Shown piece after piece: positions 1,976-22,369 of a stretch of DNA of 64,000 nt. Within the stretch, counting starts at the first letter, position 1, and every line of letters begins with the position of its first letter. A program made the position numbers and the translations under genes. Source of the stretch: Tagaea sp. (GTDB lineage: Bacteria; Pseudomonadota; Alphaproteobacteria; CACIAM-22H2); the NCBI GenBank assembly GCA_044356395.1, contig JBIKWI010000001.1:3921-67920 (forward strand). Reading direction: 5' to 3'. The notes beneath the pieces were generated by a model. That model was given only the letters and a program-made list of their open reading frames with translations. It had not been told where the DNA came from and ran no database searches.

Positions 1976-1988
1976 GCCGGCTCCCGGA

Positions 1989-4800: not shown

Positions 4801-5637
4801 CTAGATGGCCGCGAGCCTGTAGATGCGCCGTGCATTGCCACCCTCGAGCGCCAGACGATCCGGAATCGGCAGCGCCGCCCTGTCGAGCAAGGTCCGGCTT
4901 GCCGAAGCCCATCGGGCATAACCGCCACGCAGGTTGATGACCGGCCAGTTGCTGGCCCACATGATCCTTGCCGGGCCGAAGCATGCCAGCAGGTGTCGAA
5001 ACGCCGGTTCGAGCATTTCCGCTTCCCAGTTTTTCGGTGCTTCCTCGGCAAGTCCGGAAAACTTCGTCGAGACCGACGGAAAAGCGGCGATCCGTTCGAT
5101 CGCATCGGTCCAGTCCCGTCTGTCGGTTCGCCGCAAGGGCGCACTCGCGCCATGATCGACGACGATGCGAAGATCCGGAAATGCAGCTGCGACAGCCGCG
5201 ATCGCAGTCGCGTGTTCGGCGCGCGCAATGACATCGAGCGACAGACCTGCCTCGACAAGTGCCGCGAGGCCGGGGCGAATTCGGTCTTCGGCGAGCCAGT
5301 CGACCGGATCGACACGATTTAGCATGGCCCGGACGCCGACGATCTTCGGACGTGCGGCGAGTGCGCGGACGCACTCGCGCACATCGCCGGCGGAAAGATC
5401 GACCCATCCGACGACTCCGCGAACTTCGGCGATGTTCGCGCTCACGTCGATCAGATGATCCGTCTCGCCGGAATCCGGGGCGGACTGGATCGCAACCGCG
5501 CCGGTCACTCCGGCATTTTCCATCAGCGGCCGCAAGTCGTCCGGCATGGCCTGACGCGCGAGCGACGGCTCACGACGGACAATGAGGATGTCGTCCTTGC
5601 GATGCATGTCCCAGAAATGCACATGTGCGTCGATCAT
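4801..5637 (-). CDS. Amidohydrolase-2 family hydrolase (lactonase-like, e.g. aldonolactonase)
   Basis: Starts MIDAHVHFWD, the metal-binding motif of amidohydrolase_2 lactonases; start ATG shares ATGA with the upstream AKR stop. The 345-aa ORF is an N-terminal extension. Confidence 0.8.
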   Translation of the reverse strand: MIDAHVHFWDMHRKDDILIVRREPSLARQAMPDDLRPLMENAGVTGAVAIQSAPDSGETDHLIDVSANIAEVRGVVGWVDLSAGDVRECVRALAARPKIVGVRAMLNRVDPVDWLAEDRIRPGLAALVEAGLSLDVIARAEHATAIAAVAAAFPDLRIVVDHGASAPLRRTDRRDWTDAIERIAAFPSVSTKFSGLAEEAPKNWEAEMLEPAFRHLLACFGPARIMWASNWPVINLRGGYARWASASRTLLDRAALPIPDRLALEGGNARRIYRLAAI

Positions 5638-6569
5638 GGCAACGGACACGCCCGGTCGATGAGACCGGTCTGCTGGAGCGATCGCCAGAATGCTCCTGGA
5701 ATGGGAACCTCGAGCATGTCGAGGCAGTCCCGGAGTTCGCGGGGACTGCGTGCGCCCAACAGAAGGGTCCGGATGGCCGGATGTGCGAGCGGAAACTGCA
5801 ACGCCGCTGCCCGGAGCGGAATGCCGTAGCTCGCACAAAGCGCTTCGATCGATCGCGTCCGTTCCAGAATGGCCGCAGGTGCCGGATCATAGTGGAACAC
5901 GGCGCCTGCGACCGCACCGGTCGCGAGGATGCCCGAGTTGAAGACGCCACCGACGATCAGCCGCGTGTCCGCACGCTCGGCGACCGGGACGAGACCGAGC
6001 ATGGACTGGTCGAGAAGCGTGTATCGGCCGGCGACAAGGACGGCGTCGAAGCGGGCCCGTGCCATCAGGTCGAGCGGCGCTTCGACCTTGTTAGCCCCGA
6101 TCCCGATGCCGCCGATCCTGCCGCTCGAACGAAGTCGTTCGAGTTCCGGGTAGGCCGCCATCGCTGCGTCCGTCCGGCCTTCGACGTCGTGGAGATGCAC
6201 CAGGTCGAGGCGATCGGCGACGAGCCGCCGAAGACTGTTCTCGATGGAGCGTCGTGTCGCATCGGGCGAATAGTCCCAGATGTCGGCCGCCCGGCGGACG
6301 CCGCCCGGCGGAGCGGCGGCTTGCCCGTAAGGCCGGCTTACACCTGTCTTCGTCGAGAGGAAAAACGCATCCCGCGGTCGGCGCGACAGTGCGCGGCCGA
6401 TCCTCTCTTCCGAGAGTCCGCCGCCATAGAGCGGCGACGTGTCGAACGTCCGGATGCCTGCGTCCCAGGCAGCGTCGATCGCGGCCAAGGCATCCGCATC
6501 GTCGACCGGATCGAAAAGCACGCCTAAGGCGGCTCCGCCCAGACCGAGGCGCTCGTAAGGAATTCTCAT
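5634..6569 (-). CDS. Aldo/keto reductase family oxidoreductase
   Basis: MRIPYERLGLGGAALG...DTSPLYGGG AKR signature; ATGA overlaps at both ends. Confidence 0.85.
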   Translation of the reverse strand: MRIPYERLGLGGAALGVLFDPVDDADALAAIDAAWDAGIRTFDTSPLYGGGLSEERIGRALSRRPRDAFFLSTKTGVSRPYGQAAAPPGGVRRAADIWDYSPDATRRSIENSLRRLVADRLDLVHLHDVEGRTDAAMAAYPELERLRSSGRIGGIGIGANKVEAPLDLMARARFDAVLVAGRYTLLDQSMLGLVPVAERADTRLIVGGVFNSGILATGAVAGAVFHYDPAPAAILERTRSIEALCASYGIPLRAAALQFPLAHPAIRTLLLGARSPRELRDCLDMLEVPIPGAFWRSLQQTGLIDRACPLP

Positions 6570-7327
6570 CGCTGGACGATCCCCCAGCGCTGGACCGTCG
6601 CCCGCTCGAGCGGGACAAACACCAGCCGATCCATCACCAGCCAGATCAGGCCGATCGCGATCATGCCGATCAGGACCGTTTCGGTGCGATACCACTGGAC
6701 TGCTTCGATCGTCATGTATCCGAGACCGTTTGTTCCGGCGATCATTTCACCGGCCACCAATGCCCGCCACCCGTAGGCCATTGCGGTCCGGAACCCGACG
6801 ATTAGCTGGACCAGCGCGCCAGGCAGAATCAGGACTGTGGCAAGGCTCAGACCGCGTCCGCCAAGCGAGCGGACGGCGCGGTGAAGCGCCTGCGGGATCG
6901 CCTGCACGCCGATCACCGTGTTGTAGAGCATTGCGAAAAAAATCGTGTTCGCGATGACGAAAACGACCGACCCGATGCCGATGCCGAACCAGATGATCGC
7001 AAGTGGTACCCACGCGATGCCGGCGATCGATTGGAGGAAAGTCAGCAGGGGCTTGAGCGTGTCCGCGACGTGACGGTTGAGCGCGATCGCGATGCCGAGC
7101 GGCACGGCAATGCCCGCACCCAGGGCGAAGCCGAGCGCGAGACGGCCGAGAGAGCCGGCGATATGGCCTGCGAGCGTTCCGTCCGCCGCGATCTCCCGCA
7201 GATGTATCCATACGTCCGGTAGCGGCGGCAGCATGTAGGAAGGATAGTCGATCGCAAGGGGCAGGATTGCCCAGATCGAGAGCGCCAGTCCGAAAGGCAC
7301 GAGCCCGATGAGCGAAGCGGCTTTCAT
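6566..7327 (-). CDS. ABC transporter permease, NitT/TauT (SsuC-like) family
   Basis: Six-TM binding-protein-dependent transport permease profile; ATGA overlap with the upstream permease. Confidence 0.85.
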   Translation of the reverse strand: MKAASLIGLVPFGLALSIWAILPLAIDYPSYMLPPLPDVWIHLREIAADGTLAGHIAGSLGRLALGFALGAGIAVPLGIAIALNRHVADTLKPLLTFLQSIAGIAWVPLAIIWFGIGIGSVVFVIANTIFFAMLYNTVIGVQAIPQALHRAVRSLGGRGLSLATVLILPGALVQLIVGFRTAMAYGWRALVAGEMIAGTNGLGYMTIEAVQWYRTETVLIGMIAIGLIWLVMDRLVFVPLERATVQRWGIVQR

Positions 7328-8142
7328 GCGCGCTGCTCCGCCTCGATCACGAGACCCCAGCGCTCGACGGTCGCCCGCTCGACGGGCTTCAGGTAGAACT
7401 GGTCGATCAGCAGCCAGAGCAGGCCGACCGAGATCATGCCCACGATCGTGCGCGCCGTCTGCTGGGTCTGTGCGCCTTCGAAAATCAGGTAGCCGAGCCC
7501 GGTCTTCGCCGCGACGATCTCAGCGAAGATCAGTCCCCGGAACGCGAAACCCGCACCGACACGCAGGCCAGTGATGATGCTCGGCAGGGCTGCCGGCAGG
7601 ATGACGTTGACCAGCACCTGCCATCGGTTCGCGCCAAGAACCCGGACGGCGTTGATCAGCGGCTGCGGAACCGTGCGGACCCCTACCAGCGTGTTGTAGA
7701 CGACAGGGAAGAACACCACATAAGTCAATGCGATCAGGATCGTCTTGTAGCCGTAGCCCCACCAGATGACGAATATGGGTATCCATGCGACCTCGACGAT
7801 CGCGAAGAGGAAGTTGATCGTCGGCGACAGAAGACGCGAGGCGGTCGCGTTGAGCCCGATGAGGATGCCGAAGAATATGCCGGCGCATGCGCCGATCGCG
7901 ACGCCTACCGTATAGCGCTCAAGGCTGTCGATGATATAGACCGGCAGGATCCCTTTGCGCACGAGATCGACGAATGCAGCCGCGACGTCGGAAGGTGCCG
8001 GATAGAAGTACGGCTCGAGCCCGACAAGCGGGACCGATATCTGCCATGCCGCCAGGAAAAGCAGGATGCCGAGCGCGCCCTTTGCAGGGCGTTCGAGCTT
8101 CTTGCGCAGCGGAATGCCGGAGGACGCTATCGACCCGGCCAT
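7324..8142 (-). CDS. ABC transporter permease, NitT/TauT family (second permease of the same importer)
   Basis: Start taken at MAGSIASSG (ATG at 8142); SsuC-like profile; the 413-aa ORF upstream of it is a low-complexity extension. Confidence 0.8.
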   Translation of the reverse strand: MAGSIASSGIPLRKKLERPAKGALGILLFLAAWQISVPLVGLEPYFYPAPSDVAAAFVDLVRKGILPVYIIDSLERYTVGVAIGACAGIFFGILIGLNATASRLLSPTINFLFAIVEVAWIPIFVIWWGYGYKTILIALTYVVFFPVVYNTLVGVRTVPQPLINAVRVLGANRWQVLVNVILPAALPSIITGLRVGAGFAFRGLIFAEIVAAKTGLGYLIFEGAQTQQTARTIVGMISVGLLWLLIDQFYLKPVERATVERWGLVIEAEQRA

Positions 8143-8450
8143 TTCCGCACCCCGCGCACCCAGTAGGCGGCTGCGGCTTCGCGCAGCGCCGTCGGGTCGA
8201 CATCCATCAGGAATATCTCCGTGCCGCGCACCTCGATCAGGCGACCGATGGCTTGGAGCCGGGTCACGTGAAATCCTTCCGGCGCGAACGCCAGCGTAAC
8301 GATGTAGTGATCCTTGGCTGTTCCAACCCCACCTGCTTGAGCAAGGGTGTCGGCATGGTAGCGCCCCCACGCCGTCCATGCCGCTGCGACGGCAAGGACA
8401 GCGATCGTCGCGGCAAAAGTCCGGAAAAGCGGGTGCCGGCGGTCGATCAT
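8127..8450 (-). CDS. Hypothetical 107-aa protein with a single N-terminal TM helix, embedded in the ABC importer operon
   Basis: ATG at 8450 shares ATGA with the ATPase stop; the 3' end overlaps the next permease start by 16 nt. Codon usage and GC3 match neighbouring genes. Without it there would be an unexplained ~300-bp gap in an otherwise tightly coupled operon. No family recognised. Confidence 0.55.
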   Translation of the reverse strand: MIDRRHPLFRTFAATIAVLAVAAAWTAWGRYHADTLAQAGGVGTAKDHYIVTLAFAPEGFHVTRLQAIGRLIEVRGTEIFLMDVDPTALREAAAAYWVRGVRKWPGR

Positions 8451-9235
8451 GCGGCCTGCCGGTCCACGCCGCGGACCGAAGCGAGGACATGATCCTTGAT
8501 GCGGGCGAACTCGGCATCTGTACCCAACTGCGACCAGATACGCCGGTCGCGGGCGATCGGCACATCGACGATTTCCTTCACGCGACCGGGCCCGGGTGTC
8601 AGCACGGCGACACGGTCGCCGAGAAAGCATGCCTCCTCGACGCTGTGCGTGACGAAAAGGACCGTGATTCGCGCGGCAGCCCAGATACGAAGCAACTCCT
8701 CCTGGAGTGTCATCCGGGTCTGGGCATCGATGGCCGCGAACGGTTCGTCCATCAGCATGACCTCCGGCTCGTTCGCCAGGGTCCGTGCGACGGCCGTGCG
8801 TTGCTTCATGCCGCCGGATAGTTCGTGGGGATATTTCTGCGCTGCGTCCGCCAGATTCGCCATTTCCAGATAGTGCCGCGCACGCTCGTGACGCTCGGCC
8901 TTCGGGACGCCCTTCAACTTGGGGCCGAGCGCCACGTTGTCGAGCACCGTCATCCAGGGAAGCAGCGCGTACTCCTGGAACACGACGCCCCGATCGGCGC
9001 CCGGACCGTCGATCGGCCGCCCGTCGAGAGTGAGGATCCCGGCGCGCGGCTTGAGGAACCCCGCGATCGCCGATATCAGCGTCGACTTTCCGCAGCCGCT
9101 CGGACCAACGACGCAGAAGAACTCGTCGGCGAGGACATCGAGCGACAGGCCGTCGACCGCGACGTGGCGCTCGCCACGCGTCTCGTCGCGGTACTCCAGC
9201 CTGAGATCGCGCGCGGCGATCCGGACATTCGTCAT
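8447..9235 (-). CDS. ABC transporter ATP-binding protein, NitT/TauT family
   Basis: Walker A GPSGCGKST; signature LSGGMKQR; Walker B LLMDEP; start at MTNVRIAARDL. Confidence 0.9.
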   Translation of the reverse strand: MTNVRIAARDLRLEYRDETRGERHVAVDGLSLDVLADEFFCVVGPSGCGKSTLISAIAGFLKPRAGILTLDGRPIDGPGADRGVVFQEYALLPWMTVLDNVALGPKLKGVPKAERHERARHYLEMANLADAAQKYPHELSGGMKQRTAVARTLANEPEVMLMDEPFAAIDAQTRMTLQEELLRIWAAARITVLFVTHSVEEACFLGDRVAVLTPGPGRVKEIVDVPIARDRRIWSQLGTDAEFARIKDHVLASVRGVDRQAA

Positions 9236-9248
9236 CGTTCCGGCCCTC

Positions 9249-10274
9249 TCAGAGGCGCCGATCCGCCGGGACCGGCTTGAGATCCGAGAAAAACTGCGGT
9301 GCCGTCGCTTCGACGTGCTTGTAGAACTGCGCGTCGACCACGCTTGCGGCCGGCAGGGAACGGGCCATCCGCTTGTCGGCAACGAGGGCCGGTATGGTCG
9401 TCTTGTCGTAGCCTTCGAGGGTGTTCTTGGTCACCCGCAGGTCGTAGAGCGAGTTCCGGATGGCCACCTTCATGATGTCCATGTCGATGCCGGTGATCCA
9501 ACGCATGTTGATCTCCGCTGCCGCGTCGTAGTTCTGGCGCAGCCACTGGTGCGCCTCCGAGAACGCGACCATGAAGCGGCGGAGCTGTTCCGACTTCTGG
9601 GCGATCGTTGCGCGTGTCGTCAGGATCGATCCCGGATCGTAGCAGCTCTTGCAGTTGCCCCGGATGACTTCGATGGCGCCGGGCGTGCGAAGGGTCGCCA
9701 CTGTCGCCCAAGGCTCCCATGCCGCGACGGCGTGCACGTCGCCTTGGCGAAGAGCCGTGGCCGTGTCCGCCGGCCGGATATTGACGAGCGTCATGTCCGT
9801 GTCCTTGAGACCGGCCTGGGCGAGTATTCCGAGAAGATAGCCCTCCGCACCCGTCCCGCGTGCGAGACCGATTTTCTTGCCCCGCAGGCTCTGCAGATCG
9901 TCCTTGCGGACGCCACCCTGCGGTGTCGTGATCAGCGCATTGTTCTGCGAGTAGTTGGTCGACAGCGCGTCGCCGTGCAGGTGTCCGATCAGGACGATGG
10001 GCTGGCCGCGCGACACGCCTGCCAGAAACGGGATCGATCCCATGATGTTGACGTCCTGCGCATTGGCGAGCAGTCCGTTGATCATTTCGACGCCGGTCTG
10101 ATACATCACGATCTTCGCGTCGAGGCCGTGTTTGGCGAATATTCCGCGTTCGACGCCGATGAAGGCGGCGGCGTGATCGGTTGCGTAGGCCGCGCCGATC
10201 TTGATCTCGAGCGGCTGGGCCGTTGCCGCGCTTGCGCCAAGCAGCGCGATTGCGGCGATCAGTTTCTTGAACAT
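9249..10274 (-). CDS. ABC transporter substrate-binding protein, NitT/TauT (SsuA/NMT1-like) family, Sec signal peptide
   Basis: N-terminal MFKKLIAAIALLGASAATAQP signal; SsuA-like fold. Confidence 0.85.
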   Translation of the reverse strand: MFKKLIAAIALLGASAATAQPLEIKIGAAYATDHAAAFIGVERGIFAKHGLDAKIVMYQTGVEMINGLLANAQDVNIMGSIPFLAGVSRGQPIVLIGHLHGDALSTNYSQNNALITTPQGGVRKDDLQSLRGKKIGLARGTGAEGYLLGILAQAGLKDTDMTLVNIRPADTATALRQGDVHAVAAWEPWATVATLRTPGAIEVIRGNCKSCYDPGSILTTRATIAQKSEQLRRFMVAFSEAHQWLRQNYDAAAEINMRWITGIDMDIMKVAIRNSLYDLRVTKNTLEGYDKTTIPALVADKRMARSLPAASVVDAQFYKHVEATAPQFFSDLKPVPADRRL

Positions 10275-10317
10275 CTTTGTTTCCTCCTGGTGTCGTTCGG
10301 CTCTGTCGGCCGTTGCT

Positions 10318-11799
10318 TCAGTTTCTGTCGAGGCGGTTCTGCTCCGGTTTCGTCGGCCATAGGTAAGCGTTGGCCGGATTCGTCCGGCGGGCCCAGGCGC
10401 CGATCACGTCCTTGTCGAGACGGCGGGCACGCATGCGGGCATCGACGTCGTCCGGCGACCAGTCGGCGAGCAATCGTTCCAGCAGGCGTGCCAGGATCGG
10501 CGTGTGAGCCGGCGATTCGGCGAGGTCGTACAACTCGTCGGGATCGGATGCGAGATCGAAGAGCTGCGGCCGGTAGCCGTGGTAGTAGACCAGCTTCCAT
10601 CGGTCCCGGCGAAGCATGCGCTGGCGCACCGCCATTCCGCCGGTCCAGACCGGAACTTCATCGGTGCAGTATTCTGATACGGTTTCGTCGAGCCAGGGGG
10701 CCGAGCCGTTCTTGGCCACGTCGAGAAAGCTGCGTCCTTGCGAACCGGGAAGAGGCGGCGCACCCAATGCAGCGAGCATCGTCGCGGTCAGATCGACGAG
10801 ATTGACCACCTGCGAACGGCGTTGTCCTGCCGGAATCGTCCCGGGCCAAGACAAGATCATCGGGACGCGAACGGACTCCTCGTAGAAGGTGTGCTTCCAC
10901 CAAAGTCCGCGCTCGCCGATTTGGTCGCCGTGGTCCGTCGTATAGACGATCAATGTATCTTCGGCGAGACCGTTGCGGTGAAGGGCAGCGAGCACATCGC
11001 CGATCATCGCGTCGAGCCGGTATGTCAGCGCGTAGTATGCGGCGCGCGCACGATGCACGTCTTCCGGGTCGACGGTCTCGATGCCCCTGTTGGCGCGCCA
11101 CCATGCAAGCCACGGATGCTCGGTGCTCGGCAAAGGTGCCGCGATCCGCGGCCGGCGGACCTTGCTCGCGAACAGTTCGTAGTCTGCCGTCGTCGCGACA
11201 TAAGGCGGATGAGGCAGCATGAAGCCGACGGAAAGCGCGAACGGATCGTCATTTCCGGACCTGCGTTGCATGCCAAGTCGGTCGATGTACGCGATCGCTG
11301 CCCGGGTCACGTCCCGATCCTTGATCTCGTAAACGCTTTCCCCCGGGCCGCTGCGTACGACACTCGTACGGTGCGGATCGTTCGTTTCGTTGAGCACGCC
11401 CATATCGTGACGCGGAACGCCGCCCCAATTGGGACTATGGTCGCCGATTTCGCGTTCCGTATAGCCGTGCAACTGGTCCGGACCCATCGCATGCAGGCGA
11501 CCGATCAGAATGGGCCGATAGCCGGCTGCGCCCAGCGCGTGCGGCCAGGTGGCCCTGTCGGACGCGAGAAAATCGTCATTGGTCCAGCAGTCCTGGGCCG
11601 ACGGGTGTCGCGCCGTCAGCATCGACATGCGGGACGGCACGCAGATCGGCGAAGGGCAATAGGCGGCGTCGAACGTGACTCCGGTCGCGGCGAGCGAGTC
11701 GAGATTGGGCGTCTTGGCGATGCTATCGCCGTAGCAGCCCGCCACGTGGAACGCGTGTTGGTCGGAGAACAGGAAAAGGAGGTTCGGCCGCTTCTTCAT
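10318..11799 (-). CDS. Cys-type sulfatase (formylglycine-dependent), predicted cytoplasmic
   Basis: CVPSRMSMLTARH (C-x-P-x-R) sulfatase signature near the N-terminus; LLFLFSDQH; no signal peptide. Confidence 0.9.
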   Translation of the reverse strand: MKKRPNLLFLFSDQHAFHVAGCYGDSIAKTPNLDSLAATGVTFDAAYCPSPICVPSRMSMLTARHPSAQDCWTNDDFLASDRATWPHALGAAGYRPILIGRLHAMGPDQLHGYTEREIGDHSPNWGGVPRHDMGVLNETNDPHRTSVVRSGPGESVYEIKDRDVTRAAIAYIDRLGMQRRSGNDDPFALSVGFMLPHPPYVATTADYELFASKVRRPRIAAPLPSTEHPWLAWWRANRGIETVDPEDVHRARAAYYALTYRLDAMIGDVLAALHRNGLAEDTLIVYTTDHGDQIGERGLWWKHTFYEESVRVPMILSWPGTIPAGQRRSQVVNLVDLTATMLAALGAPPLPGSQGRSFLDVAKNGSAPWLDETVSEYCTDEVPVWTGGMAVRQRMLRRDRWKLVYYHGYRPQLFDLASDPDELYDLAESPAHTPILARLLERLLADWSPDDVDARMRARRLDKDVIGAWARRTNPANAYLWPTKPEQNRLDRN

Positions 11800-12446: not shown

Positions 12447-12455
12447 GTTTCCATC

Positions 12456-12477
12456 TATAACTGAGATATCAGTCATA
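12456..12477. promoter_or_regulatory. Candidate GntR operator / divergent promoter: inverted repeat TATAACTGA-GATA-TCAGTCATA (core ACTGA-N4-TCAGT) inside an AT-rich island
   Basis: Read directly from the sequence between the GntR start (12446, minus) and the mutarotase start (12514, plus). This is the only AT-rich stretch in the region. A palindrome of this kind is plausible for GntR-family operators, but the assignment to GntR is inference. Confidence 0.5.
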
Positions 12478-12513
12478 TCTCAAGCGCCGATTCTCCGACG
12501 GAAGGAGCGAAAC

Positions 12514-12873
12514 ATGGACACCGCCAACCCGATCGGGCCATTGCCGGCTGCCGAGAGCGTCGCGTTCTGCCTGCGCTTGCGGCCGGGCACCGAGGCCGAG
12601 TACCAGCGGCGACACGACGAGATCTGGCCGGAAATGCGCGCGACGATCGTGGGCGCGGGAATCCTCCATTTCGAGATCCACCTGATGCACGAATACGGTC
12701 TGCTGTTCGCGTTCGTCGTGCGCCGCGGCGACCATTCGATGGATTCTTTCCGCGGCAATCCCGTCTGGCGGCGATGGCAGGCACACATGTCCGACATCCT
12801 TCTTCAGGACGGCGACAGTCCGCTGCGGATCCCGCTGGAGCGCGTCTTCAGCCTGCGCGCAGGAACGGCCTAG
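12514..12873 (+). CDS. rhaM: L-rhamnose mutarotase family protein (RhaM/YiiL-like)
   Basis: EYQRRHDEIWPEM...PVWRRWQAHMSD matches the conserved RhaM core (EYxxRHxxIWPE ... WW..M) as I recall it; GAAGGAG RBS 6 nt upstream; about 119 aa. Confidence 0.7.
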   Translation: MDTANPIGPLPAAESVAFCLRLRPGTEAEYQRRHDEIWPEMRATIVGAGILHFEIHLMHEYGLLFAFVVRRGDHSMDSFRGNPVWRRWQAHMSDILLQDGDSPLRIPLERVFSLRAGTA

Positions 12874-13772
12874 AACGCTGCCAGGAACGGCGGGCGCGCG
12901 GAGTAGGGCACGCGGATAGCGAGCAGATCGCCGGCAAGCGGCTGGCGTGCGAGTTCCTGTGCGGACAGGACACGGCGCTGGGAAGTCACGAACAGCGTGC
13001 GTCCGTCGGGTCCGCCGAGCGTGGGCATCGTGGGGCGCGATACGGGTAGTTCGACGACGAGGTCGAGCATGCCGTCGGGTCGAAAGCGCTCGATCCTGCC
13101 GGCTTCGATGAGCGCGACCCACAGCCCGCCTTCGGCATCGATGCAACTGCCATCCGGCGCGCCTGTTTCCGGGAACTGAACGAACGGCCGCGCTGGACCG
13201 GCCAATCCGGACGCCGGATCGTAAGCCGCGACTTCGATCGTGCGGCTGCGCGTGTCGCAGAAAAAGAACCGGGAGCCGTCCGTCGAGAAGTCGATCGCGT
13301 TCGGTATGCGGATCTCCGTACGGATCCGGTCCAGCCGACCGTCGAGGTCGAGGCGATAGAGCGAACCGACTGGCGCGCCGGAGCCGGACTTGTCCATCGT
13401 TCCGAACCAGAGTCGACCGGCCGGATCGGGCTTTCCTTCATTGATCCGGGTTGTCGTCACGTCCGATTCGACGGCGACGATGCGTTCCCCCAGACCGTCC
13501 GACGGGTCGAACGGATAGAGGCCATCCTCGAGGCCGACGAGGAGCCCGCCCGTCCGTCGCCCGACCAGCAGGCCCGGCATGCTGGGAAGCGGGTATTCGA
13601 CTGTGTCCCCACTGCCCGGCGAACAGCCGAGCAGCCGTTGTCCCTGGATATCGACCCACCACAGCATACCCGAACCGGCGTCCCAGAACGGGCATTCGCC
13701 GGTCACGGCATTGCCGTGGTGGATCGCGACGGTCTCGTGCCGACCGATCGTCCGCACGTCCGGCTTCGTCAC
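12870..13772 (-). CDS. SMP-30/gluconolactonase/LRE-like lactonase
   Basis: N-terminal GECPFWD...LWWVDI and repeated six-bladed-propeller motifs; GTG start at 13772 overlapping the SBP stop (GTGA); 3' end overlaps the convergent rhaM stop by 4 nt. Confidence 0.8.
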   Translation of the reverse strand: MTKPDVRTIGRHETVAIHHGNAVTGECPFWDAGSGMLWWVDIQGQRLLGCSPGSGDTVEYPLPSMPGLLVGRRTGGLLVGLEDGLYPFDPSDGLGERIVAVESDVTTTRINEGKPDPAGRLWFGTMDKSGSGAPVGSLYRLDLDGRLDRIRTEIRIPNAIDFSTDGSRFFFCDTRSRTIEVAAYDPASGLAGPARPFVQFPETGAPDGSCIDAEGGLWVALIEAGRIERFRPDGMLDLVVELPVSRPTMPTLGGPDGRTLFVTSQRRVLSAQELARQPLAGDLLAIRVPYSARPPFLAAF

Positions 13773-14986
13773 GCCAGCTTCCAGGAATCGATTTCCCAGA
13801 CCGGCGCGCCGCGGGTGTCCGGTGCCGAGCGGTCGGCGAATGCCGCTGGGGCAGGATCCTTGCCGACCCGTTCCCAGGCCTCTCGCGACAGCGGTGCTCC
13901 CAGAGCAAGAGTGCGTTTGACGGAGTCCGGGTTGAGCTCGCTCTGGAAGATCGTCTTGACCTTCGACATGCCGATCAGGGACCGCGCGTCCCCCTCGGTG
14001 ATCCACGACCAGCCGCGCTTGCGGTACAGGATGTTCTCGACATAGGGACGCTGGGCCGCCCGGTCGCTGAACCACTCCTTGTTGGCGAGGTCGATTACCT
14101 CGTCTGTCGTCATCTTCGTCGTCAGCTGGACAGCCCGTGCATTCGCGACGAGAAGCGCCACGACGGCCTTGGGGTTCTCGCGCATGAACTGTTCGCGTGC
14201 GACCCACCAGATCCGGTGCGGATAGTAGGCTTCGGGATGGAATCCGGTCTTGCTGAAGCTCGCGACCCTGTGGCCCTCGCCCTTTCCTTCAGGACCGTCG
14301 TAGGCCGGGCCGGTCGATCCGTCGTTTCGCACGAGCGCCACGAGCTCGCCCGCATTCTCCGCGCCCCGCGCAGCCGGATCGACGTTGAGGACGGCATCGA
14401 TTCCCGGCTGTGCGCGCGTCAGCTCGGTGAACGCCTGGATATTCTTGACCGTGATGTTCAGCTCCTTGACGTCGTCGGTCCCGAAATGCGCCTTCAGCAT
14501 CAGCATCAGGACAAGATGAAGATCGGACCCGACGATCGTCAGGATCGTCTTGCCGCGCAGATCGTCGAGCTTCCTGATCGGCGATCCTTTCGGGACCTGC
14601 AGCGGAAACTTGATGCCGCCGCCGCCGATCGCGATCGGTACGGCCGGATTGGGCTGGGCGAGGTTCCGGATCGTCGGCGTCGAGCCGAGCATCCCGATGT
14701 CGAGCTGGCCGGCGGCCAAGCCCTGGAGCATCCGGAGGAGAACGGGAAAGTTCAGGTACTCGGCATCGATACGCAAGCCGAGTTCCTCCGCCGCCTTCTC
14801 CAGCAGCTTGTCGCGCTGCATCGCGAAAACAAGCGGCGCGCCGTCATTCGTAAGGCCGACTCCCATCGACATCTTCAGCGCCTGGGCCAAGGAGGGGCTG
14901 GCGCGGAAGAGCGGCAGCGCCGCCAGGGCAGCGGCACCGCCCGTCTTCAGGACCGAACGTCTTGTCGTATCTGCATCGCGTTCCAT
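13769..14986 (-). CDS. ABC transporter substrate-binding protein, NitT/TauT (NMT1-like) family, twin-arginine signal
   Basis: N-terminal TRRSVLKTGGAAALAALPL Tat motif; 405 aa, larger than SsuA. Confidence 0.8.
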   Translation of the reverse strand: MERDADTTRRSVLKTGGAAALAALPLFRASPSLAQALKMSMGVGLTNDGAPLVFAMQRDKLLEKAAEELGLRIDAEYLNFPVLLRMLQGLAAGQLDIGMLGSTPTIRNLAQPNPAVPIAIGGGGIKFPLQVPKGSPIRKLDDLRGKTILTIVGSDLHLVLMLMLKAHFGTDDVKELNITVKNIQAFTELTRAQPGIDAVLNVDPAARGAENAGELVALVRNDGSTGPAYDGPEGKGEGHRVASFSKTGFHPEAYYPHRIWWVAREQFMRENPKAVVALLVANARAVQLTTKMTTDEVIDLANKEWFSDRAAQRPYVENILYRKRGWSWITEGDARSLIGMSKVKTIFQSELNPDSVKRTLALGAPLSREAWERVGKDPAPAAFADRSAPDTRGAPVWEIDSWKLA

Positions 14987-15024
14987 GAGGTTCCTCCGGG
15001 TTTTGACTTCGGCGTTTCTGGTTT

Positions 15025-15840
15025 CTACGGTTCTTCGACGATTGCCTGTGCGGCTTCAGAACGGATCAGGTTCCAGATCTGCTCGACGAGTCGAGCCGCT
15101 TCCGGCGACGAGCGGACACCGCTGCGCGGACGAGGGAGGTCGATTGGGACGATCTCTTTGATCTGGCCCGGCCTGCGGCCAAGTACGACGACGCGGTCGG
15201 ACAGGTAGACGGCTTCATCGATCCCATGCGTGACGAAGAGCACCGACTTTCGCTCGACCCCGGGACTGGCGTCGCCCCACAGCCGGAGAAGTTCGTCCTG
15301 AAGGATCACGCGTGTCTGCAAATCGACGGCCGCAAGCGGCTCGTCCATCAGCCAGACCTCCGGCTCGTTGGCGAGCAGGCGCGCGAGGGCGCAGCGCTGG
15401 CGCATACCGCCGGACAGCTCGTGCGGATACCTGTCCTCGAATCCGGAAAGGCCGACCATCTCGATATTCCGCCGGACAAGGTCGGTCCGGCGAGCGGCGC
15501 CGAGACCCCGGGCGAGCGGGCCGAACTCGACGTTTCCGCGGACCGTACGCCATGGGAAAAGAGCGTAGTCCTGGAACATCACGCCGCGTTCCGGGCCTGG
15601 CCCCGTGATCGCCCGGCCATCGAACCGGACCACACCGGACGAAGGTTCCGCGAACCCGGCGACAAGAGACAGGAGCGTTGATTTTCCGCAGCCGGAAGGG
15701 CCGACGATAGACACGAACTCGTTCGGCATGACCTGGAAGGATACGTCGCGCAGCGCCTCGACCTTCGTTCCGTTGCGGGCGGAAACGTAGATCTTCCCGA
15801 GGTTGGCGGCCTCGATCTTGGGGGCGGTCATTTCTGCCAT
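15025..15840 (-). CDS. ABC transporter ATP-binding protein, NitT/TauT family
   Basis: GPSGCGKST; LSGGMRQR; LMDEP. Confidence 0.9.
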   Translation of the reverse strand: MAEMTAPKIEAANLGKIYVSARNGTKVEALRDVSFQVMPNEFVSIVGPSGCGKSTLLSLVAGFAEPSSGVVRFDGRAITGPGPERGVMFQDYALFPWRTVRGNVEFGPLARGLGAARRTDLVRRNIEMVGLSGFEDRYPHELSGGMRQRCALARLLANEPEVWLMDEPLAAVDLQTRVILQDELLRLWGDASPGVERKSVLFVTHGIDEAVYLSDRVVVLGRRPGQIKEIVPIDLPRPRSGVRSSPEAARLVEQIWNLIRSEAAQAIVEEP

Positions 15841-16607
15841 GGGGTCACCGCGCGCTGGAGCGAACGAACGCCATAGTCGATGGCCATGCTGATGAGTCCG
15901 ATACTGGCCATGTAGAGAACTAGCCCGTTTATGTCCCGTTTTATGTACAGAGTGTTGACCATAAGCTGCCCCAGTCCGACTGTCGCCGCGCCACCCGGAT
16001 TGACCTTGATGCCGATCGCCATCTCAGCCGCAATGATCGATCCCCACGCGAATGCCATCGCGATGCGTGCGCCGGTGAGCACGACGGGAAGCGCTCCCGG
16101 CACGATGATCGCGTGTAACGTTAGCCATCGTCCGGCGCCGAGTGCGCGCCCGGCGTCGACGAGACGGCGGTCAATGAGCCGCACGGCCTGAATCGTGTTG
16201 AGGACGAACGGGAAGAAGGCGGCATACGCGACGATGAAAAGCGCGGCATTTCCGCGGATGCCGAGCCATAGGAGTGCCATCGGTATCCATGCGATCGGCG
16301 CGATCGCGCGCAGCGAGTCGACGATCGGGTCGAGTGCCCGCCGTACCGGCTCGGCAAGTCCCATGAGCAGGCCCAGCGGAATGCCGAAAAGGGCGGCGAT
16401 CGCAAACCCGGTCGTGACCCGCTGAAGGCTGCCCGCAATGGCAGTCAGTAGCGTGCCGTCGGCAAGCGCACGAACAGCCGCTTCGGCGATTCCGGACGGG
16501 TAAGGCGCGATCTTCGCCGATCCCGTCGCGTGGACGCCCGCTTCCCATGCGACCAGGACAGTCGCGAAGAAAACAAGTGGAGCTGCCCGGCGCTGCTTGG
16601 GCGTCAT
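15828..16607 (-). CDS. ABC transporter permease, NitT/TauT family
   Basis: Start at MTPKQRRAAPLVFF (ATG 16607, ATGA with the upstream permease stop); the 471-aa ORF is an extension. Confidence 0.8.
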   Translation of the reverse strand: MTPKQRRAAPLVFFATVLVAWEAGVHATGSAKIAPYPSGIAEAAVRALADGTLLTAIAGSLQRVTTGFAIAALFGIPLGLLMGLAEPVRRALDPIVDSLRAIAPIAWIPMALLWLGIRGNAALFIVAYAAFFPFVLNTIQAVRLIDRRLVDAGRALGAGRWLTLHAIIVPGALPVVLTGARIAMAFAWGSIIAAEMAIGIKVNPGGAATVGLGQLMVNTLYIKRDINGLVLYMASIGLISMAIDYGVRSLQRAVTPWQK

Positions 16608-17380
16608 GCGCCCTCCATGCGGGTATCCGCACTCCAGCGCGTGAGTCCCGATTGGATACGTCGCAGGACCAGATCGAGCGCGTAGCCGAGAACGCCGATT
16701 GAAAGAATGACGGCCATGACCTTGTCCATGGCGAAGAACTCCTGATACCAGAATATCCGCCAGCCGAGTCCGGCATCGGCACCCGTGAGTTCGGCGGCAA
16801 CCATCGCGGCCCATGCCACACCGAGACTGAGGCGGGCGCCTGCGAGGACCAAAGGCAGTGCCGCCGGCAGCACGACATGCGTGACCACCATGCGCTCGGG
16901 CGCTCCCAGCGACCGCGCGGCGTTGAGGAGGTTCGGGTCGACCTGTCGTATTCCCGCGAGTGTATTGACGAAGATTGGAAACGCCGACGCATAGAAGATC
17001 AGGAAAATCGGCACGCCGCGCCCAATTCCGAAGAAGATGATGGCGAGCGGGATCCATGCGATCGCGCCGATGGGTCGCAGGAATTCCATGAACGGGTCGG
17101 CGATGGCATCGACGATCTCGAACCGGGCGCATAGTACGGCAAGAGCGAGGCCGAGCGTCGCGCCGGCGCCGTATCCGGTCGCCAGATGCACGAGGCTTGC
17201 GGCGATATCGGCAGGCAGATCGCTTCGGAGAAGTTCGAGCCACGCCTTACCTACGGCGGGCGGAGCGGGAACCAGCGTCGCGTTCGCGACTTGCAGCGCC
17301 ACTGCGTGCCATGCAATGCCGACGACGCCGAGCGCAAGGCCGAACTCGGCAAGCCTGCGGAAGTGGCGAAAGACATTCAC
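16604..17380 (-). CDS. ABC transporter permease, NitT/TauT family
   Basis: GTG start at 17380 overlapping the enolase stop (GTGA); SsuC-like profile. Confidence 0.8.
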   Translation of the reverse strand: MNVFRHFRRLAEFGLALGVVGIAWHAVALQVANATLVPAPPAVGKAWLELLRSDLPADIAASLVHLATGYGAGATLGLALAVLCARFEIVDAIADPFMEFLRPIGAIAWIPLAIIFFGIGRGVPIFLIFYASAFPIFVNTLAGIRQVDPNLLNAARSLGAPERMVVTHVVLPAALPLVLAGARLSLGVAWAAMVAAELTGADAGLGWRIFWYQEFFAMDKVMAVILSIGVLGYALDLVLRRIQSGLTRWSADTRMEGA

Positions 17381-18504
17381 GCCGATGGCCCGCGAAGCTC
17401 GGACAGCGAAATCAGCTTTCCGGCGTCGAGCGAGATGCCGAGCCCCGGCCCCGCCGGCAGCGCGCTGTTTCCTTGATGGGTAAGTGGCAGGCTATCGAGG
17501 AGTATCGAAGAGAAGACAGGGCTTTCGTCGTACTGGTGCTCGAGAATCATCATGCCGGGCAGCGTCGCGCAGAGCTGGAGGCTTGCGACATGAGACACCG
17601 GACCGCTCGGATTGTGCGGCGCCACCTTCATGCCGCGAGTCGCCGCGTAGTCGGCGGTCCGGCGGAACTCGACCATGCCGCCGGCATACTTGATATCGGG
17701 CATCAGGACGTCGTACGTGCCGGCATCGATGAAAGGACGGAAGCCTTCGAGCGCAGTTTCGGTCTCGCAGCCGGCCAGCACCGCGCCTAACCGGTTCGCC
17801 TGCGCGCGCAGTTGCCTTAGTCCTTCGAAGTTCTCGGGGTGCTCGGGCAATGGGCATTCGAACCAGGTGACCCCCAGTTCGGCCAGTGCGTCGAGTGCAA
17901 TCGACGCATTGGCGAGATCGAAGCGCCAGTGGCAGTCGACGAAGAGGCGGCGCTTCGGTCCGATTTCCGAGCGGACTGCCGCTGCGCGAGCGATCCCTTC
18001 AGCGACATTTTCGCCGCTTCCTGGCCGGACGGCATCGAATGGCGCGATCTTCACTGTTTCGAACCCGTCGGCGATCGCCTTCCTCGCGCTTGCCGCGAAG
18101 CCCGCCGGTGTCCGGTCGACGGTCCGTCTGTTGATGTTCGCATAGAGCGGAATCGTGTCGCGAACGGTTGTGCCGATAAGGTCGCGCATCGGGCGGCCTT
18201 CACGGCGTCCGGCCGCGTCCCAAAGCGCCTGGTCGAGCGCGCTGGCGATCGCGGCCCCCGCTCGATCGGTGCGGCGCACGCCGCACCGATCGAGCGGGTT
18301 GTCGCAAGGGTGTGCACTTGTGCCGCACAGTTGTGCGGCTAGGGGAGACAATGCCGCGGCGAGATCTCCCTCCTGTCCTGCAAGCGTGGCTTCTCCCCAA
18401 CCGGAGTTTCCGTCGGAGTCGCGGACATGGACGAAGACCCAGATGGTTTTCGCGCTCGCGCGCGCGGCATGGCCGTCGATGGACCGGATTGTGGCAAACG
18501 TCAT
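17377..18504 (-). CDS. Enolase-superfamily enzyme (mandelate racemase / muconate lactonizing family; likely acid-sugar dehydratase)
   Basis: Start MTFATIRSIDG; KxK / D...E...D metal-ligand spacing (KIAPFD...DCHWRF...EHP...DIKYAGG); about 375 aa. Confidence 0.75.
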   Translation of the reverse strand: MTFATIRSIDGHAARASAKTIWVFVHVRDSDGNSGWGEATLAGQEGDLAAALSPLAAQLCGTSAHPCDNPLDRCGVRRTDRAGAAIASALDQALWDAAGRREGRPMRDLIGTTVRDTIPLYANINRRTVDRTPAGFAASARKAIADGFETVKIAPFDAVRPGSGENVAEGIARAAAVRSEIGPKRRLFVDCHWRFDLANASIALDALAELGVTWFECPLPEHPENFEGLRQLRAQANRLGAVLAGCETETALEGFRPFIDAGTYDVLMPDIKYAGGMVEFRRTADYAATRGMKVAPHNPSGPVSHVASLQLCATLPGMMILEHQYDESPVFSSILLDSLPLTHQGNSALPAGPGLGISLDAGKLISLSELRGPSA

Positions 18505-19166
18505 TGCGGCGCCGCTCCGGCCGTACGGATTTTGCGTAGCATTTCCTGTTTTGCCTTTGCCGCGTGCGCCGTCTGAAGGATTGCGGCACCTTCCGCGTCG
18601 CGCTGCGAGAGCGCCACGATGATCTGCCGATGATCGGAGATCACGCCAGCGACGCGTTCTTCGCCGTAGCCGTGGCGTCCCCAAAGCGCGACGATGATGT
18701 TCCAGTGACGGTCGAGAATACGTATCGCTTCGATGTTGCCGGCGGCATCGTTGATGACCGCATGGAACGCCTGGTTTGCGGCGAGTACCCCGGCAAAGTC
18801 GGATCGGGCGGCACTTGCCTCGAGGTCCGACTCGATCCGGCGGATTTCTTCGATCTGATCGGCGCCGATGCGCTCCGCCGCCCGCCTTGCCAGCATCGCC
18901 TCGAGCGCGATGCGCAAATCGAACAGGTCGCGCACGAAGTCGGCATCGACCGCGCGTACGCGGGCGCCCCGGTTCGGCTCGACATTGACGAGACCTTCGC
19001 CCTGGAGTTGGCGAAGCGCCTCGCGGATCGGCATGTGGCTCGTCGTGTAGCGCGCAGCAAGCTCGTCGATCTTGAGACGGCCGCCAAACGGAAACACCCC
19101 GGACAAGATGTCCTGGCGTAGGCGGTCACTGATCGATCTCGCCTCGATCTCCGACAGCACGCGCAT
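18501..19166 (-). CDS. GntR family transcriptional regulator (FCD domain)
   Basis: wHTH LKIDELAARYTTSHMPIREALRQLQGEGLV; ATG at 19166 (track start 19172 is a GTG); stop shares ATGA with the enolase start. Confidence 0.85.
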   Translation of the reverse strand: MRVLSEIEARSISDRLRQDILSGVFPFGGRLKIDELAARYTTSHMPIREALRQLQGEGLVNVEPNRGARVRAVDADFVRDLFDLRIALEAMLARRAAERIGADQIEEIRRIESDLEASAARSDFAGVLAANQAFHAVINDAAGNIEAIRILDRHWNIIVALWGRHGYGEERVAGVISDHRQIIVALSQRDAEGAAILQTAHAAKAKQEMLRKIRTAGAAPQ

Positions 19167-19182
19167 CCTCACCTTTTCCGGT

Positions 19183-21262: not shown

Positions 21263-21272
21263 GTCCCGTGCC

Positions 21273-22223: not shown

Positions 22224-22369
22224 CTGACGTCCTCCCGTTGTCTCTTTGGTTGCGAGTATTGGATTTCGGTGGCGGGCGGTCAAGCGTGCCTCGAAAGCAC
22301 CGGCCGTCTGGCGCAACGGCCGAAGCTTCCAATTCGCCAGTCCGACTGCCAGGTGATGACCGGGACGGA

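Follow-up and report, generated by a model that had tools for sequence, protein, structure and literature searches.

Which substrate is served by two adjacent operons that bring together a sulfatase, two importers of the NitT/TauT type and a set of putative sugar-oxidizing enzymes? The question is raised by a stretch of Tagaea sp. DNA of 64,000 nt (GCA_044356395.1, contig JBIKWI010000001.1, positions 3,921-67,920, forward strand), referred to here in its full length as the window, whose positions serve as coordinates throughout. The two minus-strand operons, operon 1 (12446-4801) and operon 2 (19166-12870), are read here as a single system for the catabolism of a small, free aldose sulfate ester, that is, a monosaccharide sulfate, and a probability of roughly 55% is assigned to this reading. 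It builds upon gene content, protein families, catalytic residues, operon structure, conserved operators and conserved linkage, from which a substrate class, an order of steps and the effectors of two regulators are proposed. As judged from its genes, the locus would combine import and cytoplasmic desulfation of the ats type with oxidation of the non-phosphorylative L-fucose/L-rhamnose type.

Organization of the Two Operons

Families were assigned by Pfam and NCBIfam scans of the window genes, equivalog cut-offs being those of the NCBIfam models. The genes of each operon are given below in order from the first, together with the mutarotase gene that lies between the operons (ABC, ATP-binding cassette; SBP, substrate-binding protein; AKR, aldo-keto reductase).

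Operon 1
11796..12446, minus strand: GntR1, GntR/FCD regulator, first gene of the operon (Pfam GntR and FCD)
10318..11799, minus strand: cytoplasmic Cys-type (formylglycine) S1 sulfatase (Pfam Sulfatase, 158 bits, and SGSH_C)
9249..10274, minus strand: SBP1, periplasmic SsuA/NMT1-type binding protein with a Sec signal (Pfam NMT1, NMT1_2)
8447..9235, minus strand: ABC ATPase of importer 1 (Pfam ABC_tran)
8127..8450, minus strand: conserved 107-aa protein with one N-terminal hydrophobic segment, no Pfam family, motif TLAFAPEGFHVTRLQAIGR
7324..8142, minus strand: permease 1a of importer 1 (Pfam BPD_transp_1; start from start-codon analysis)
6566..7327, minus strand: permease 1b of importer 1 (Pfam BPD_transp_1)
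5634..6569, minus strand: AKR, proposed aldose 1-dehydrogenase (Pfam Aldo_ket_red)
4801..5637, minus strand: Amidohydro_2 protein (COG3618-type), proposed aldono-1,5-lactonase (Pfam Amidohydro_2)

Between the operons
12514..12873, plus strand: RhaM-family mutarotase (Pfam rhaM, 75 bits)

Operon 2
18501..19166, minus strand: GntR2, GntR/FCD regulator, first gene of the operon (Pfam GntR and FCD)
17377..18504, minus strand: enolase-superfamily acid-sugar dehydratase with a GalD-type active site (Pfam MR_MLE_N, MR_MLE_C)
16604..17380, minus strand: permease 2a of importer 2 (Pfam BPD_transp_1)
15828..16607, minus strand: permease 2b of importer 2 (Pfam BPD_transp_1; start from start-codon analysis)
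15025..15840, minus strand: ABC ATPase of importer 2 (Pfam ABC_tran)
13769..14986, minus strand: SBP2, Tat-exported NMT1/SsuA-like binding protein (Pfam NMT1, Phosphonate-bd, TAT_signal)
12870..13772, minus strand: SMP-30/gluconolactonase-family lactonase (Pfam SGL, 246 bits)

Gene junctions in both operons are mostly 4-bp overlaps, as between GntR1 and the sulfatase gene, with two overlaps of 13 and 16 bp and otherwise gaps of 13-43 bp, an arrangement that argues for two operons with translational coupling. The 216-aa start of GntR1 agrees with that of its orthologue in L001 (L-numbers designate related loci fetched from other genomes and metagenomes). The RhaM gene is convergent with the SMP-30 gene, their stop regions overlapping by 4 bp, and is divergent from GntR1 across 67 bp. 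Base composition and third-codon-position GC content (GC3) of the operons are uniform with those of the flanks, and thus give no sign of recent insertion.

The original prediction for this DNA, drawn from the letters alone, had placed the operon ends at 12446 and 4801 and at 19166 and 12870; start-codon analysis and gene spacing match these exactly, and each gene that it listed was found in the family named, including the sulfatase, whose cytoplasmic location and Cys type agree with the lack of a signal peptide and the motif C53-V-P-S-R. Its list for operon 1 was incomplete in one respect, having overlooked the conserved 107-aa gene at 8127-8450. The closest genomes are metagenome-assembled genomes of Tagaea species (Rhodospirillales), and one Tagaea locus, L004, has the identical two-operon arrangement with a sulfatase that is 90% identical. 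Searches for other signals gave little: Rfam found no RNA family in the window, a promoter and terminator scan was uninformative (1 promoter-like site versus 2.7 expected, and 16 terminator-like sites versus 11.6 expected), and a megablast comparison of the whole region with plasmids returned two trivial matches, each shorter than 100 nt, and no annotated relative.

The Sulfatase

The active-site motif of the sulfatase, C53-V-P-S-R57, is accompanied by four residues (Q14, N74, H197, K302) that align with Gln15, Asn75, His201, and Lys309 of SmCS, the choline sulfatase of Sinorhizobium. C53-x-P-x-R and all four residues are invariant in 19 sulfatase orthologues. Having both the C/S-x-P-x-R motif and conserved catalytic residues, the protein is a type I (formylglycine, S1) sulfatase, and enzymes of this type cleave C-O-S esters, not C-S bonds. 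A gene for the formylglycine-generating enzyme (FGE) adjoins the sulfatase orthologue in Geminicoccus (L002); a tblastn search with the FGE gene of related loci found no homologue in the 64-kb window.

The closest characterized sulfatase is the choline sulfatase BetC (PDB 6fny, E = 2e-52), and orthologues with Joint Genome Institute (JGI) names among the listed matches carry the annotation "choline-sulfatase." BetC, which acts in choline-O-sulfate utilization, and the window protein are alike in being cytoplasmic class I sulfatases for a small ester. A choline-sulfatase identity was nevertheless rejected: the window protein scores 284 bits against a cut-off of 433 on the choline-sulfatase model TIGR03417, has no betA/betB/betI context, is linked to sugar-oxidizing enzymes, and carries Asp380, still acidic and invariant in its family, at the position of Glu386. 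In choline sulfatases Glu386 binds the quaternary ammonium group and is fully conserved (PMC5870055).

Enzymes Predicted to Oxidize the Sugar

The remaining enzymes belong, as originally predicted, to families found in the non-phosphorylative routes for L-fucose, L-galactose and L-rhamnose. Among solved relatives of the AKR with E values no higher than 1e-10, L-galactose dehydrogenases rank first, the five best (7lh6, the top match with E = 4e-29, followed by 9w6y, 8scc, 7ezi, and 7smi) all being of this kind. The sole NCBIfam match of the Amidohydro_2 protein is L-fucono-1,5-lactonase (156 bits versus a cut-off of 400), and its best solved relative, 4dlf, is an L-fucono-1,5-lactonase as well. 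An AKR-type L-galactose or L-fucose dehydrogenase together with a COG3618 lactonase is a known pairing in systems of Bacteroides and Xanthomonas. The best solved relative of the SMP-30 protein is 7plb, labelled Smp-30/Cgr1 family protein, and the RhaM protein scores 61 bits against a cut-off of 99.6 on the YiiL equivalog TIGR02625.

In the enolase-superfamily protein, K152, D190-x-H192, E216, E247, D270, and H297 are invariant across the family and align with the metal ligands and acid/base residues of a GalD-like structure, and the second Lys of the KxK motif is missing. Its best NCBIfam match is galactonate dehydratase (155 bits versus a cut-off of 311), its score on the RhamD model is 97 (versus 393), and orthologues with JGI names among the listed matches are annotated "galactonate dehydratase." By these comparisons the protein appears to be an acid-sugar dehydratase outside the assigned families, with an N-x-N-R-R-T-x-x-R loop of its own (residues 123-131, window about 18112-18138) that does not vary among the 32 family members compared, the most distant of them 42% identical, and is absent from the aligned solved relatives. 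The loop may bind a second anionic group on the substrate. Its use as a marker of a sulfated substrate was dropped as uninformative, since it is invariant family-wide, including at loci without a sulfatase.

Two side observations concern this protein family. Firstly, codons 69-82 of the enolase gene (18257-18298) form a perfect 20+20-nt inverted repeat with a 2-nt spacer, in frame and in a hypervariable protein loop; the predicted RNA hairpin has a free energy of -50.8 kcal/mol, the L004 orthologue (84% identical) has an imperfect hairpin of -36.8 kcal/mol, and the closest orthologues do not differ in length here. Secondly, a second enolase-superfamily type of 365-366 aa occurs at related loci (L001 8178-9278, L090 2399-3499, L094 from about 295, L002 6446-7543, and L048 5854-6951). 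Its copies share 70-73% identity between the classes compared, and about 27-30% with the window enolase; the type is absent from the window and is often divergent from GntR1 or adjoins the no-Pfam gene of about 470 aa described below.

Conserved Linkage

Evidence that the sulfatase and the sugar-oxidizing enzymes belong together comes from related loci fetched with either the sulfatase or the enolase as bait, so that the frequencies below describe those two families alone; a tblastn search with window proteins is blind to families absent from the window. The sulfatase scan, with one genome per species, yielded 80 loci with orthologues 55-90% identical, from Tagaea, other Rhodospirillales, Geminicoccaceae, Beijerinckiaceae, Acetobacteraceae, Casimicrobiaceae, other Burkholderiales, and Granulosicoccus. 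Counts were restricted to the 52 loci of at least 15 kb. Importer 1 is present in 27 of these and the AKR in 22; AKR and Amidohydro_2 occur together in 17, as many as have an enolase-superfamily gene (17/52), and at least one of AKR, Amidohydro_2, enolase, SMP-30, and RhaM is found in 35 of the 52.

The arrangements are varied. Operon 1 ends with a RhaM orthologue in L001, L006, and L007; GntR2, enolase and sulfatase genes are contiguous in L027 and L029, as are enolase and sulfatase genes in L015 and L030. In L048 and L056 the gene immediately upstream of the sulfatase orthologue is an SMP-30 orthologue (58-60% identity); the transporter there is a sugar-type ABC system, and the neighbors are an AKR, a HIBADH-family protein and a UxaA-type dehydratase. 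The betaproteobacterial locus L091 has, in a row, genes for an SBP, sulfatase, AKR, Amidohydro_2 protein, D-lyxose-isomerase-family protein and short-chain dehydrogenase/reductase (SDR).

A metagenome scan based on an alignment of enolase orthologues, independent of the sulfatase, yielded a further sample of 80 loci. Where the enolase is at least 54% identical, sulfatase-module genes lie within 10 kb in all seven loci. In L094, operon 1 is directly followed by operon 2 on the same strand, an order different from that in the window and L004. The operon 2 of L098 runs through GntR2, enolase, importer 2 and an SBP2 91% identical to that of the window, and then ends with a sulfatase gene. L092 contains a UxaA-type dehydratase, SDR, enolase, SMP-30, SDR, sulfatase and an unassigned protein; L093 contains GntR2, enolase, sulfatase and TctCA; and L095, L096, and L097 have, at the locus edge, genes of operon 1 or else GntR1 together with the second enolase type. 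L087, fetched through a 68% enolase homologue, contains enolase, SGL, SDR, sulfatase, TctCBA and a NitT/TauT importer. The adjacency of the operons in two orders, and the exchange of SMP-30 for sulfatase at the end of operon 2, suggest a functional link rather than chance. The original prediction had treated the two operons as parts of one pathway, and the direct adjacency of enolase and SMP-30 orthologues to sulfatase orthologues elsewhere, along with the different order in L094, upholds that link.

At 42-49% enolase identity the picture changes. Six loci (L121, L123, L125, L138, L153, and L164) have GntR2, enolase, importer 2, SBP2 and an SDR with no sulfatase within 10 kb, and other loci in this range pair the enolase with a UxaA-type dehydratase. 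The sulfatase-free operons suggest that the module of enolase and importer 2 is older and broader than its link to sulfate esters.

SDR genes occupy the position of a downstream step in L087, L088, L091, and L092, and those that follow the enolase or SMP-30 gene are candidates for later steps. Two further recurrent elements were observed. A conserved protein of about 470-496 aa without a Pfam match (L002 7540-8949, L048 4412-5857, L056 11485-12930, L088 16411-17820, and L015 11392-12882; 56-89% identity among the copies compared) accompanies a sulfatase, enolase or operon 2 orthologue in Geminicoccus, Beijerinckiaceae, Hyphomicrobiales and Tagaea, and has no homologue in the window. A module consisting of a split UxaA-type dehydratase (GD_AH plus a small SAF protein), a HIBADH-family protein, an AKR and a sugar-type ABC system adjoins sulfatase or enolase loci at L087 5335-8750 and L056 2292-5900 and in L093, L095, L097, L123, and L129. 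The split architecture also resembles that of the sulfolactate sulfo-lyase SuyAB.

Importers and Regulators

In both operons an NMT1/SsuA-like SBP, BPD_transp_1 permeases and an ATPase are encoded together, which is the composition of a NitT/TauT-type ABC importer; the two ATPase genes are paralogous (72% nucleotide identity over 161 nt). Both binding proteins are remote from solved SsuA, NrtA and TauA, and both score below the cut-off of 163 bits of the SsuA subfamily model TIGR01728 (SBP1, 137 bits; SBP2, 79 bits), for which reason no ligand is assigned to either. The 107-aa gene sits between the ATPase and the first permease gene of operon 1 and is found in the same position, at 42-75% identity, in L001, L087, and L091, its relatives there spanning alpha- and betaproteobacteria. 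Its product may be an accessory subunit of importers of this type.

Probable operators were found upstream of both regulator genes (no strand assigned).

12460..12473: palindrome ACTGAgataTCAGT, probable GntR1 operator, in the 67-bp GntR1/RhaM divergent region; single match in the window
19184-19191 and 19246-19253: two TTGATCAA boxes, probable GntR2 operators; only two matches in 64 kb

The probable target DNA of GntR2 has the form TTTGATCAAA, and the upstream (distal) TTGATCAA box abuts a TTGAC -35-like hexamer. The ACTGA-N4-TCAGT motif is kept upstream of GntR1 orthologues in L001, L004 to L010, L012, and L017, as are TTGATCAA boxes upstream of GntR2 orthologues in each close locus (L004, L027, L029, L088, L093, L094, L096, and L098) and several distant ones. 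As judged by this retention, both motifs are phylogenetic footprints. The difference between the operators suggests two regulons, presumably with different effectors. FCD-type GntR regulators commonly sense sugar acids; a sugar sulfate is proposed as the effector of GntR1, and an aldonate as that of GntR2.

A Proposed Route and the Identity of the Sugar

Under the favored reading, an anionic monosaccharide sulfate would be taken up by SBP1 and importer 1, with participation of the 107-aa membrane protein, and its ester would be hydrolyzed by the cytoplasmic formylglycine sulfatase to sulfate and the free aldose. RhaM, expressed from a divergent promoter sharing the GntR1 operator, would equilibrate the anomers and thereby provide the right one; the AKR would oxidize C1 to give a 1,5-lactone; and the COG3618-type amidohydrolase would open this lactone to the aldonate, to which the SMP-30 lactonase would probably convert the 1,4-lactone isomer. 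The GalD-type enolase would then dehydrate the aldonate to a 2-keto-3-deoxy-aldonate. Cleavage or oxidation of this keto-deoxy acid, as well as formylglycine generation, would be encoded elsewhere. Importer 2 would probably carry a related sulfated species, or a free aldonate or lactone, and desulfation could alternatively follow oxidation.

The identity of the sugar is suggested less clearly. L-galacto-configured sugars, of which L-fucose and L-galactose are examples, are weakly indicated by the AKR and the lactonase; manno-/lyxo-configured sugars such as L-rhamnose are indicated, also weakly, by RhaM, the lyxose-isomerase-family neighbor in L091 and the His-base dehydratase. An L-galacto- or L-manno-type hexose or 6-deoxyhexose may be tentatively proposed from these conflicting hints at about 30% identity. 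Of the overall interpretation given in the original prediction, a sulfated sugar, its desulfation in the cytoplasm and its subsequent oxidation are retained. The deoxy-sugar is not established, as no protein is at an equivalog cut-off and the sugar hints conflict; the alternative of a sulfonated sugar is judged unlikely, given that a formylglycine sulfatase acts on C-O-S esters and that the operons and scanned window genes include no enzyme of the sulfo-Entner-Doudoroff (sulfo-ED) or sulfoquinovose monooxygenase (sulfo-SMO) routes. Nor does a NitT/TauT importer by itself point to sulfated cargo, for importers of the operon 2 type also accompany the enolase family in the six loci with no sulfatase nearby.

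Several observations weigh against the favored reading. All enzyme activities are proposed from family-level similarity of about 30%, no protein reaching its NCBIfam equivalog cut-off. The window genes scanned, those of both operons included, encode neither an FGE nor an aldolase nor a keto-deoxy-acid dehydrogenase; the expected 2-keto-3-deoxy-acid aldolase, or 4-dehydrogenase with hydrolase, is likewise missing from that set, in agreement with the original prediction, which had seen no aldolase or 2-keto-3-deoxyrhamnonate (KDR) dehydrogenase. When genes of related loci were used in tblastn searches, no orthologue of the downstream SDR, GD_AH or lyxose-isomerase genes was found in the window. 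A GalD-type active site without the second Lys is expected to act on 2R aldonates, and the aldonates of L-galacto-configured sugars are 2S; should the L-galacto analogy for the AKR and the GalD analogy for the enolase both apply, AKR and enolase would have different substrates. An M20 peptidase gene takes the place of the AKR and lactonase genes after the core of GntR1, sulfatase and importer 1 in L025 and L054, and several other loci have this core alone, which suggests that the sulfatase family is not tied exclusively to sugars. The invariant Asp at the Glu386 position makes a cationic group on the substrate conceivable, and a polyol ligand likewise. Finally, operons of enolase and importer 2 exist without a nearby sulfatase (the six loci named above), and one Tagaea genome has its operon 1 (L006) and operon 2 (L088) orthologues on different contigs.

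Alternative Explanations

The last two of these points bear upon an unlikely alternative, namely that operon 1 alone handles the sulfate ester, operon 2 imports and dehydrates an unsulfated sugar acid or lactone, and the adjacency reflects at most a shared downstream route. Operon 2 does have its own regulator and a different operator, and the distant operons of GntR2, enolase, importer 2, SBP2 and SDR, as well as the separation of L088 and L006 within one assembly, are what such independence would produce; carriage of an unsulfated acid or lactone by importer 2 is a possibility. Set against this are the sulfatase-module genes in 7 of 7 loci with enolase of at least 54% identity, the sulfatase gene ending the operon 2 of L098 next to a 91% identical SBP2, the contiguity of enolase and sulfatase genes in L015, L027, L029, L030, and L093, and the adjacency of the operons in two orders (window and L004 versus L094).

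It is quite improbable that the ester is not a sugar derivative at all, but an amino-alcohol, amino-acid-derived or other small sulfate ester, the AKR and amidohydrolase then having an aldehyde or lactone other than a sugar derivative as their substrate. Choline sulfatase as the closest characterized relative, the invariant acidic Asp at the Glu386 position, the breadth of the Amidohydro_2 and AKR families, and M20 or M24 peptidase-family genes after or flanking the core module (L025, L054, L036, and L001) would all fit such a substrate. The module recurs, however, with RhaM, SMP-30, acid-sugar dehydratases, a D-lyxose-isomerase-family gene, UxaA-type dehydratases and sugar-type ABC systems, its AKR and COG3618 protein parallel the pairing of L-galactose or L-fucose dehydrogenase with lactonase, and no bet genes are present.

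Less probable still is a role confined to sulfur scavenging, in which importer and sulfatase would only release sulfate under sulfur limitation, as do atsRBCA, ssu and tau in Pseudomonas and Escherichia coli. A NitT/TauT importer beside a cytoplasmic Cys-type sulfatase is the arrangement of atsRBCA in Pseudomonas, and both SBPs are nearest to SsuA-family models. A part in the response to sulfur starvation is made unlikely by the GntR/FCD regulators with conserved operators, in place of CysB-like or SftR-like LysR regulators, by the ordinary Cys and Met content of the operon proteins (3.0%, not depleted), and by tight translational coupling and conserved linkage to carbon-catabolic enzymes.

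A sulfonated-sugar route of the sulfoquinovose type, with sulfo-ED-like action of dehydrogenase, lactonase and dehydratase on 6-deoxy-6-sulfo sugars, can be dismissed as very improbable: although the transporters are of the sulfonate type, the order of the three enzymes fits sulfo-ED logic and the adjoining HIBADH-family protein matches best the sulfolactaldehyde reductase model (216 bits versus a cut-off of 348), the most tightly linked gene is a formylglycine sulfatase with no role on C-S bonds, the best solved relatives of the AKR are L-galactose dehydrogenases, the scanned window genes include no aldolase for 2-keto-3,6-dideoxy-6-sulfogluconate (KDSG) and no sulfolactaldehyde dehydrogenase, and tblastn found no GD_AH-type (SuyAB-like) gene in the window. 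Sulfoquinovose routes were rejected, the operons and scanned window genes containing no IlvD/Edd-type sulfogluconate dehydratase, KDSG aldolase, sulfolactaldehyde dehydrogenase, SmoC monooxygenase or SmoB-type AKR.

Relationship to Known Systems

Much of the organic sulfur of soils and waters is in the form of sulfate esters, and the glycans of algae, cyanobacteria and animals are a source of sugar sulfates. Bacteria are known to remove the sulfate from such polymers outside the cell or in the periplasm, by way of polysaccharide utilization loci found mostly in Bacteroidota. The locus described here is related in part to several characterized systems. The atsRBCA genes of Pseudomonas are part of a sulfate-starvation response and include no carbon-catabolic genes. 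The likeness lies in an SsuA/TauA-family ABC importer adjoining a cytoplasmic Cys-type sulfatase, the ester being imported and then hydrolyzed inside; unlike ats, the window locus has GntR/FCD regulators, a sulfatase co-transcribed with dehydrogenase and lactonase genes, and proteins that are not sulfur-depleted.

Sulfatase, AKR-type L-galactose dehydrogenase and amidohydrolase-2 lactonase follow each other in the L-galactose branch of Bacteroides. The solved chains 7lha and 7lh6, labelled exo-L-galactose-6-sulfatase and L-galactose dehydrogenase, respectively, belong to porphyran/L-galactose catabolism in Bacteroides, which includes a COG3618 L-galactono-1,5-lactonase step, and 7lh6 is the top relative of the window AKR. 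In the Bacteroides branch, desulfation is periplasmic, within a polysaccharide utilization locus, and the neutral sugar is imported. The window sulfatase, in contrast, has no signal peptide, is encoded with a NitT/TauT-type importer and is distant from 7lha, and the next step would fall to an enolase-type dehydratase instead of the L-galactonate dehydrogenase of Bacteroides.

The non-phosphorylative L-fucose pathway of Xanthomonas and Burkholderia (dehydrogenase, the COG3618 L-fucono-1,5-lactonase represented by 4dlf, FucD, 2-keto-3-deoxyfuconate (KDF) dehydrogenase and a hydrolase) shares the order of chemistry proposed here, from aldose 1-dehydrogenase through amidohydrolase-2 lactonase to enolase-superfamily dehydratase. 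It has neither a sulfatase nor a NitT/TauT importer; conversely, its KDF dehydrogenase and hydrolase are absent from the window, where the dehydratase is not FucD-type but GalD-type (D-x-H, His/Asp dyad, no second Lys of KxK). The L-rhamnose pathway (LRA1 to LRA4) resembles the locus in its RhaM mutarotase, its lactonase and its enolase-superfamily dehydratase with a His base; LRA1, unlike the window AKR, is an SDR, no HpcH-type aldolase occurs in the window, and RhaM and the enolase are below the cut-offs of the L-rhamnose-pathway models (61 versus 99.6 bits, and 97 versus 393 for RhamD). Sulfo-ED, as in Pseudomonas putida SQ1, acts on a C-S sulfonate for which no sulfatase is needed, and its dehydratase is of the IlvD/Edd family. 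Its dehydrogenase, SMP-30-type lactonase and dehydratase, acting on an anionic sulfur-bearing sugar, recall those of the window locus, where the aldolase and sulfolactaldehyde dehydrogenase of sulfo-ED are missing.

No description of a sugar-sulfate system of this kind was found in the open-access literature. According to a recent paper, the dissolved organic matter of the ocean contains free hexose 6-sulfate (glucose or galactose 6-sulfate), for which no catabolic route is known (PMC12911362). If the favored reading is correct, the locus represents a gene set with which oligotrophic Proteobacteria import monomeric sugar sulfates first and desulfate them later for use as carbon; the NitT/TauT and tripartite tricarboxylate transporter (TTT) families would be extended to sugar-like cargo, and the "choline-sulfatase" and "galactonate dehydratase" annotations of JGI-named orthologues would be corrected. 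The sulfatase, both binding proteins, both regulators with their defined operators and the unassigned enolase family are directly testable components.

A more far-reaching proposal, which we consider improbable, is that an undescribed cytoplasmic route for free sugar sulfates is widespread among Alpha- and Betaproteobacteria that live free in lakes, soils and wastewater, with anion-type importers (NitT/TauT, TTT) in the place of sugar transporters, and that the enolase family acts on O-sulfated aldonates. The family has the invariant Arg-rich loop and is paired with NitT/TauT importers even where no sulfatase is found. After abstraction of the C2 proton, such an enolase would expel sulfate rather than water and so may be a sulfatase-independent, sulfate-eliminating lyase, whose product may directly be a 2-keto-3-deoxy acid, for example from a 3-O-sulfo-aldonate.

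Genomic Surroundings

Genes on either side of the operons may belong to the same system.

19269..23347, minus strand: LysR, TctC, TctB, and TctA (tripartite tricarboxylate-type importer), directly upstream of GntR2 (Pfam)
3892..4797, plus strand: beta-hydroxyacid dehydrogenase of the HIBADH family, convergent on operon 1 (Pfam NAD_binding_2, NAD_binding_11)

The window TctC of this first Tct system is 94% identical to the TctC that follows enolase, sulfatase and an unassigned gene in L015 (Tagaea), far above the 59-67% identity of the neighboring enzymes in the same comparison, and TctC and TctA orthologues (76-85% identity) lie within the enolase/sulfatase loci L093 and L097. The TTT system upstream of GntR2 is thus probably part of the same functional island as the operons, although this is held with lower confidence. 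A second TctCBA-type importer is encoded at 23388-26479 (plus strand), so that two such importers flank the LysR gene. The HIBADH-family protein is possibly associated with operon 1: its top NCBIfam matches, sulfolactaldehyde 3-reductase and tartronate-semialdehyde reductase, are both below cut-off, and a homologue with 47% identity occurs in the GD_AH/HIBADH/AKR modules that adjoin sulfatase or enolase loci.

By gene content, an island of sulfate-ester genes appears to reach beyond the window. A cluster of sugar ABC system, LacI and HIBADH genes occupies window positions 1-4797 and is preceded, in the DNA just left of the window start (L084 793-4657), by genes for a 743-aa sulfatase and a GMC oxidoreductase. 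A proposed orthology between the sugar ABC binding protein of this left flank and the sugar-type binding protein of the L087 module was dropped after tblastn gave no match. To the right, 26161-33865 (plus strand) encodes a sugar-type ABC system (SBP_bac_1 and two permeases) followed by two sulfatases (30517-32331 and 32258-33865), after which come a DUF3604 protein (33992-36154) and a dienelactone hydrolase (36004-36909). GFO/IDH/MocA oxidoreductases (36910-37887 and 42202-43302) and an ABC ATPase (37888-38649) lie beyond these. Further NMT1/SsuA-type binding proteins at 40134-41255 (plus strand) and 44951-46168 (minus strand) bring the total of the NitT/TauT type in the 64-kb window to four, and in L001 a binding protein paired with GFO oxidoreductases similarly adjoins the sulfatase operon. 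Finally, an FGGY-family sugar kinase gene followed by a BPD_transp_2 permease gene is located at 57365-59974 (plus strand), and in the sulfatase locus L056 this pair of genes comes after RhaM (16643-19205).

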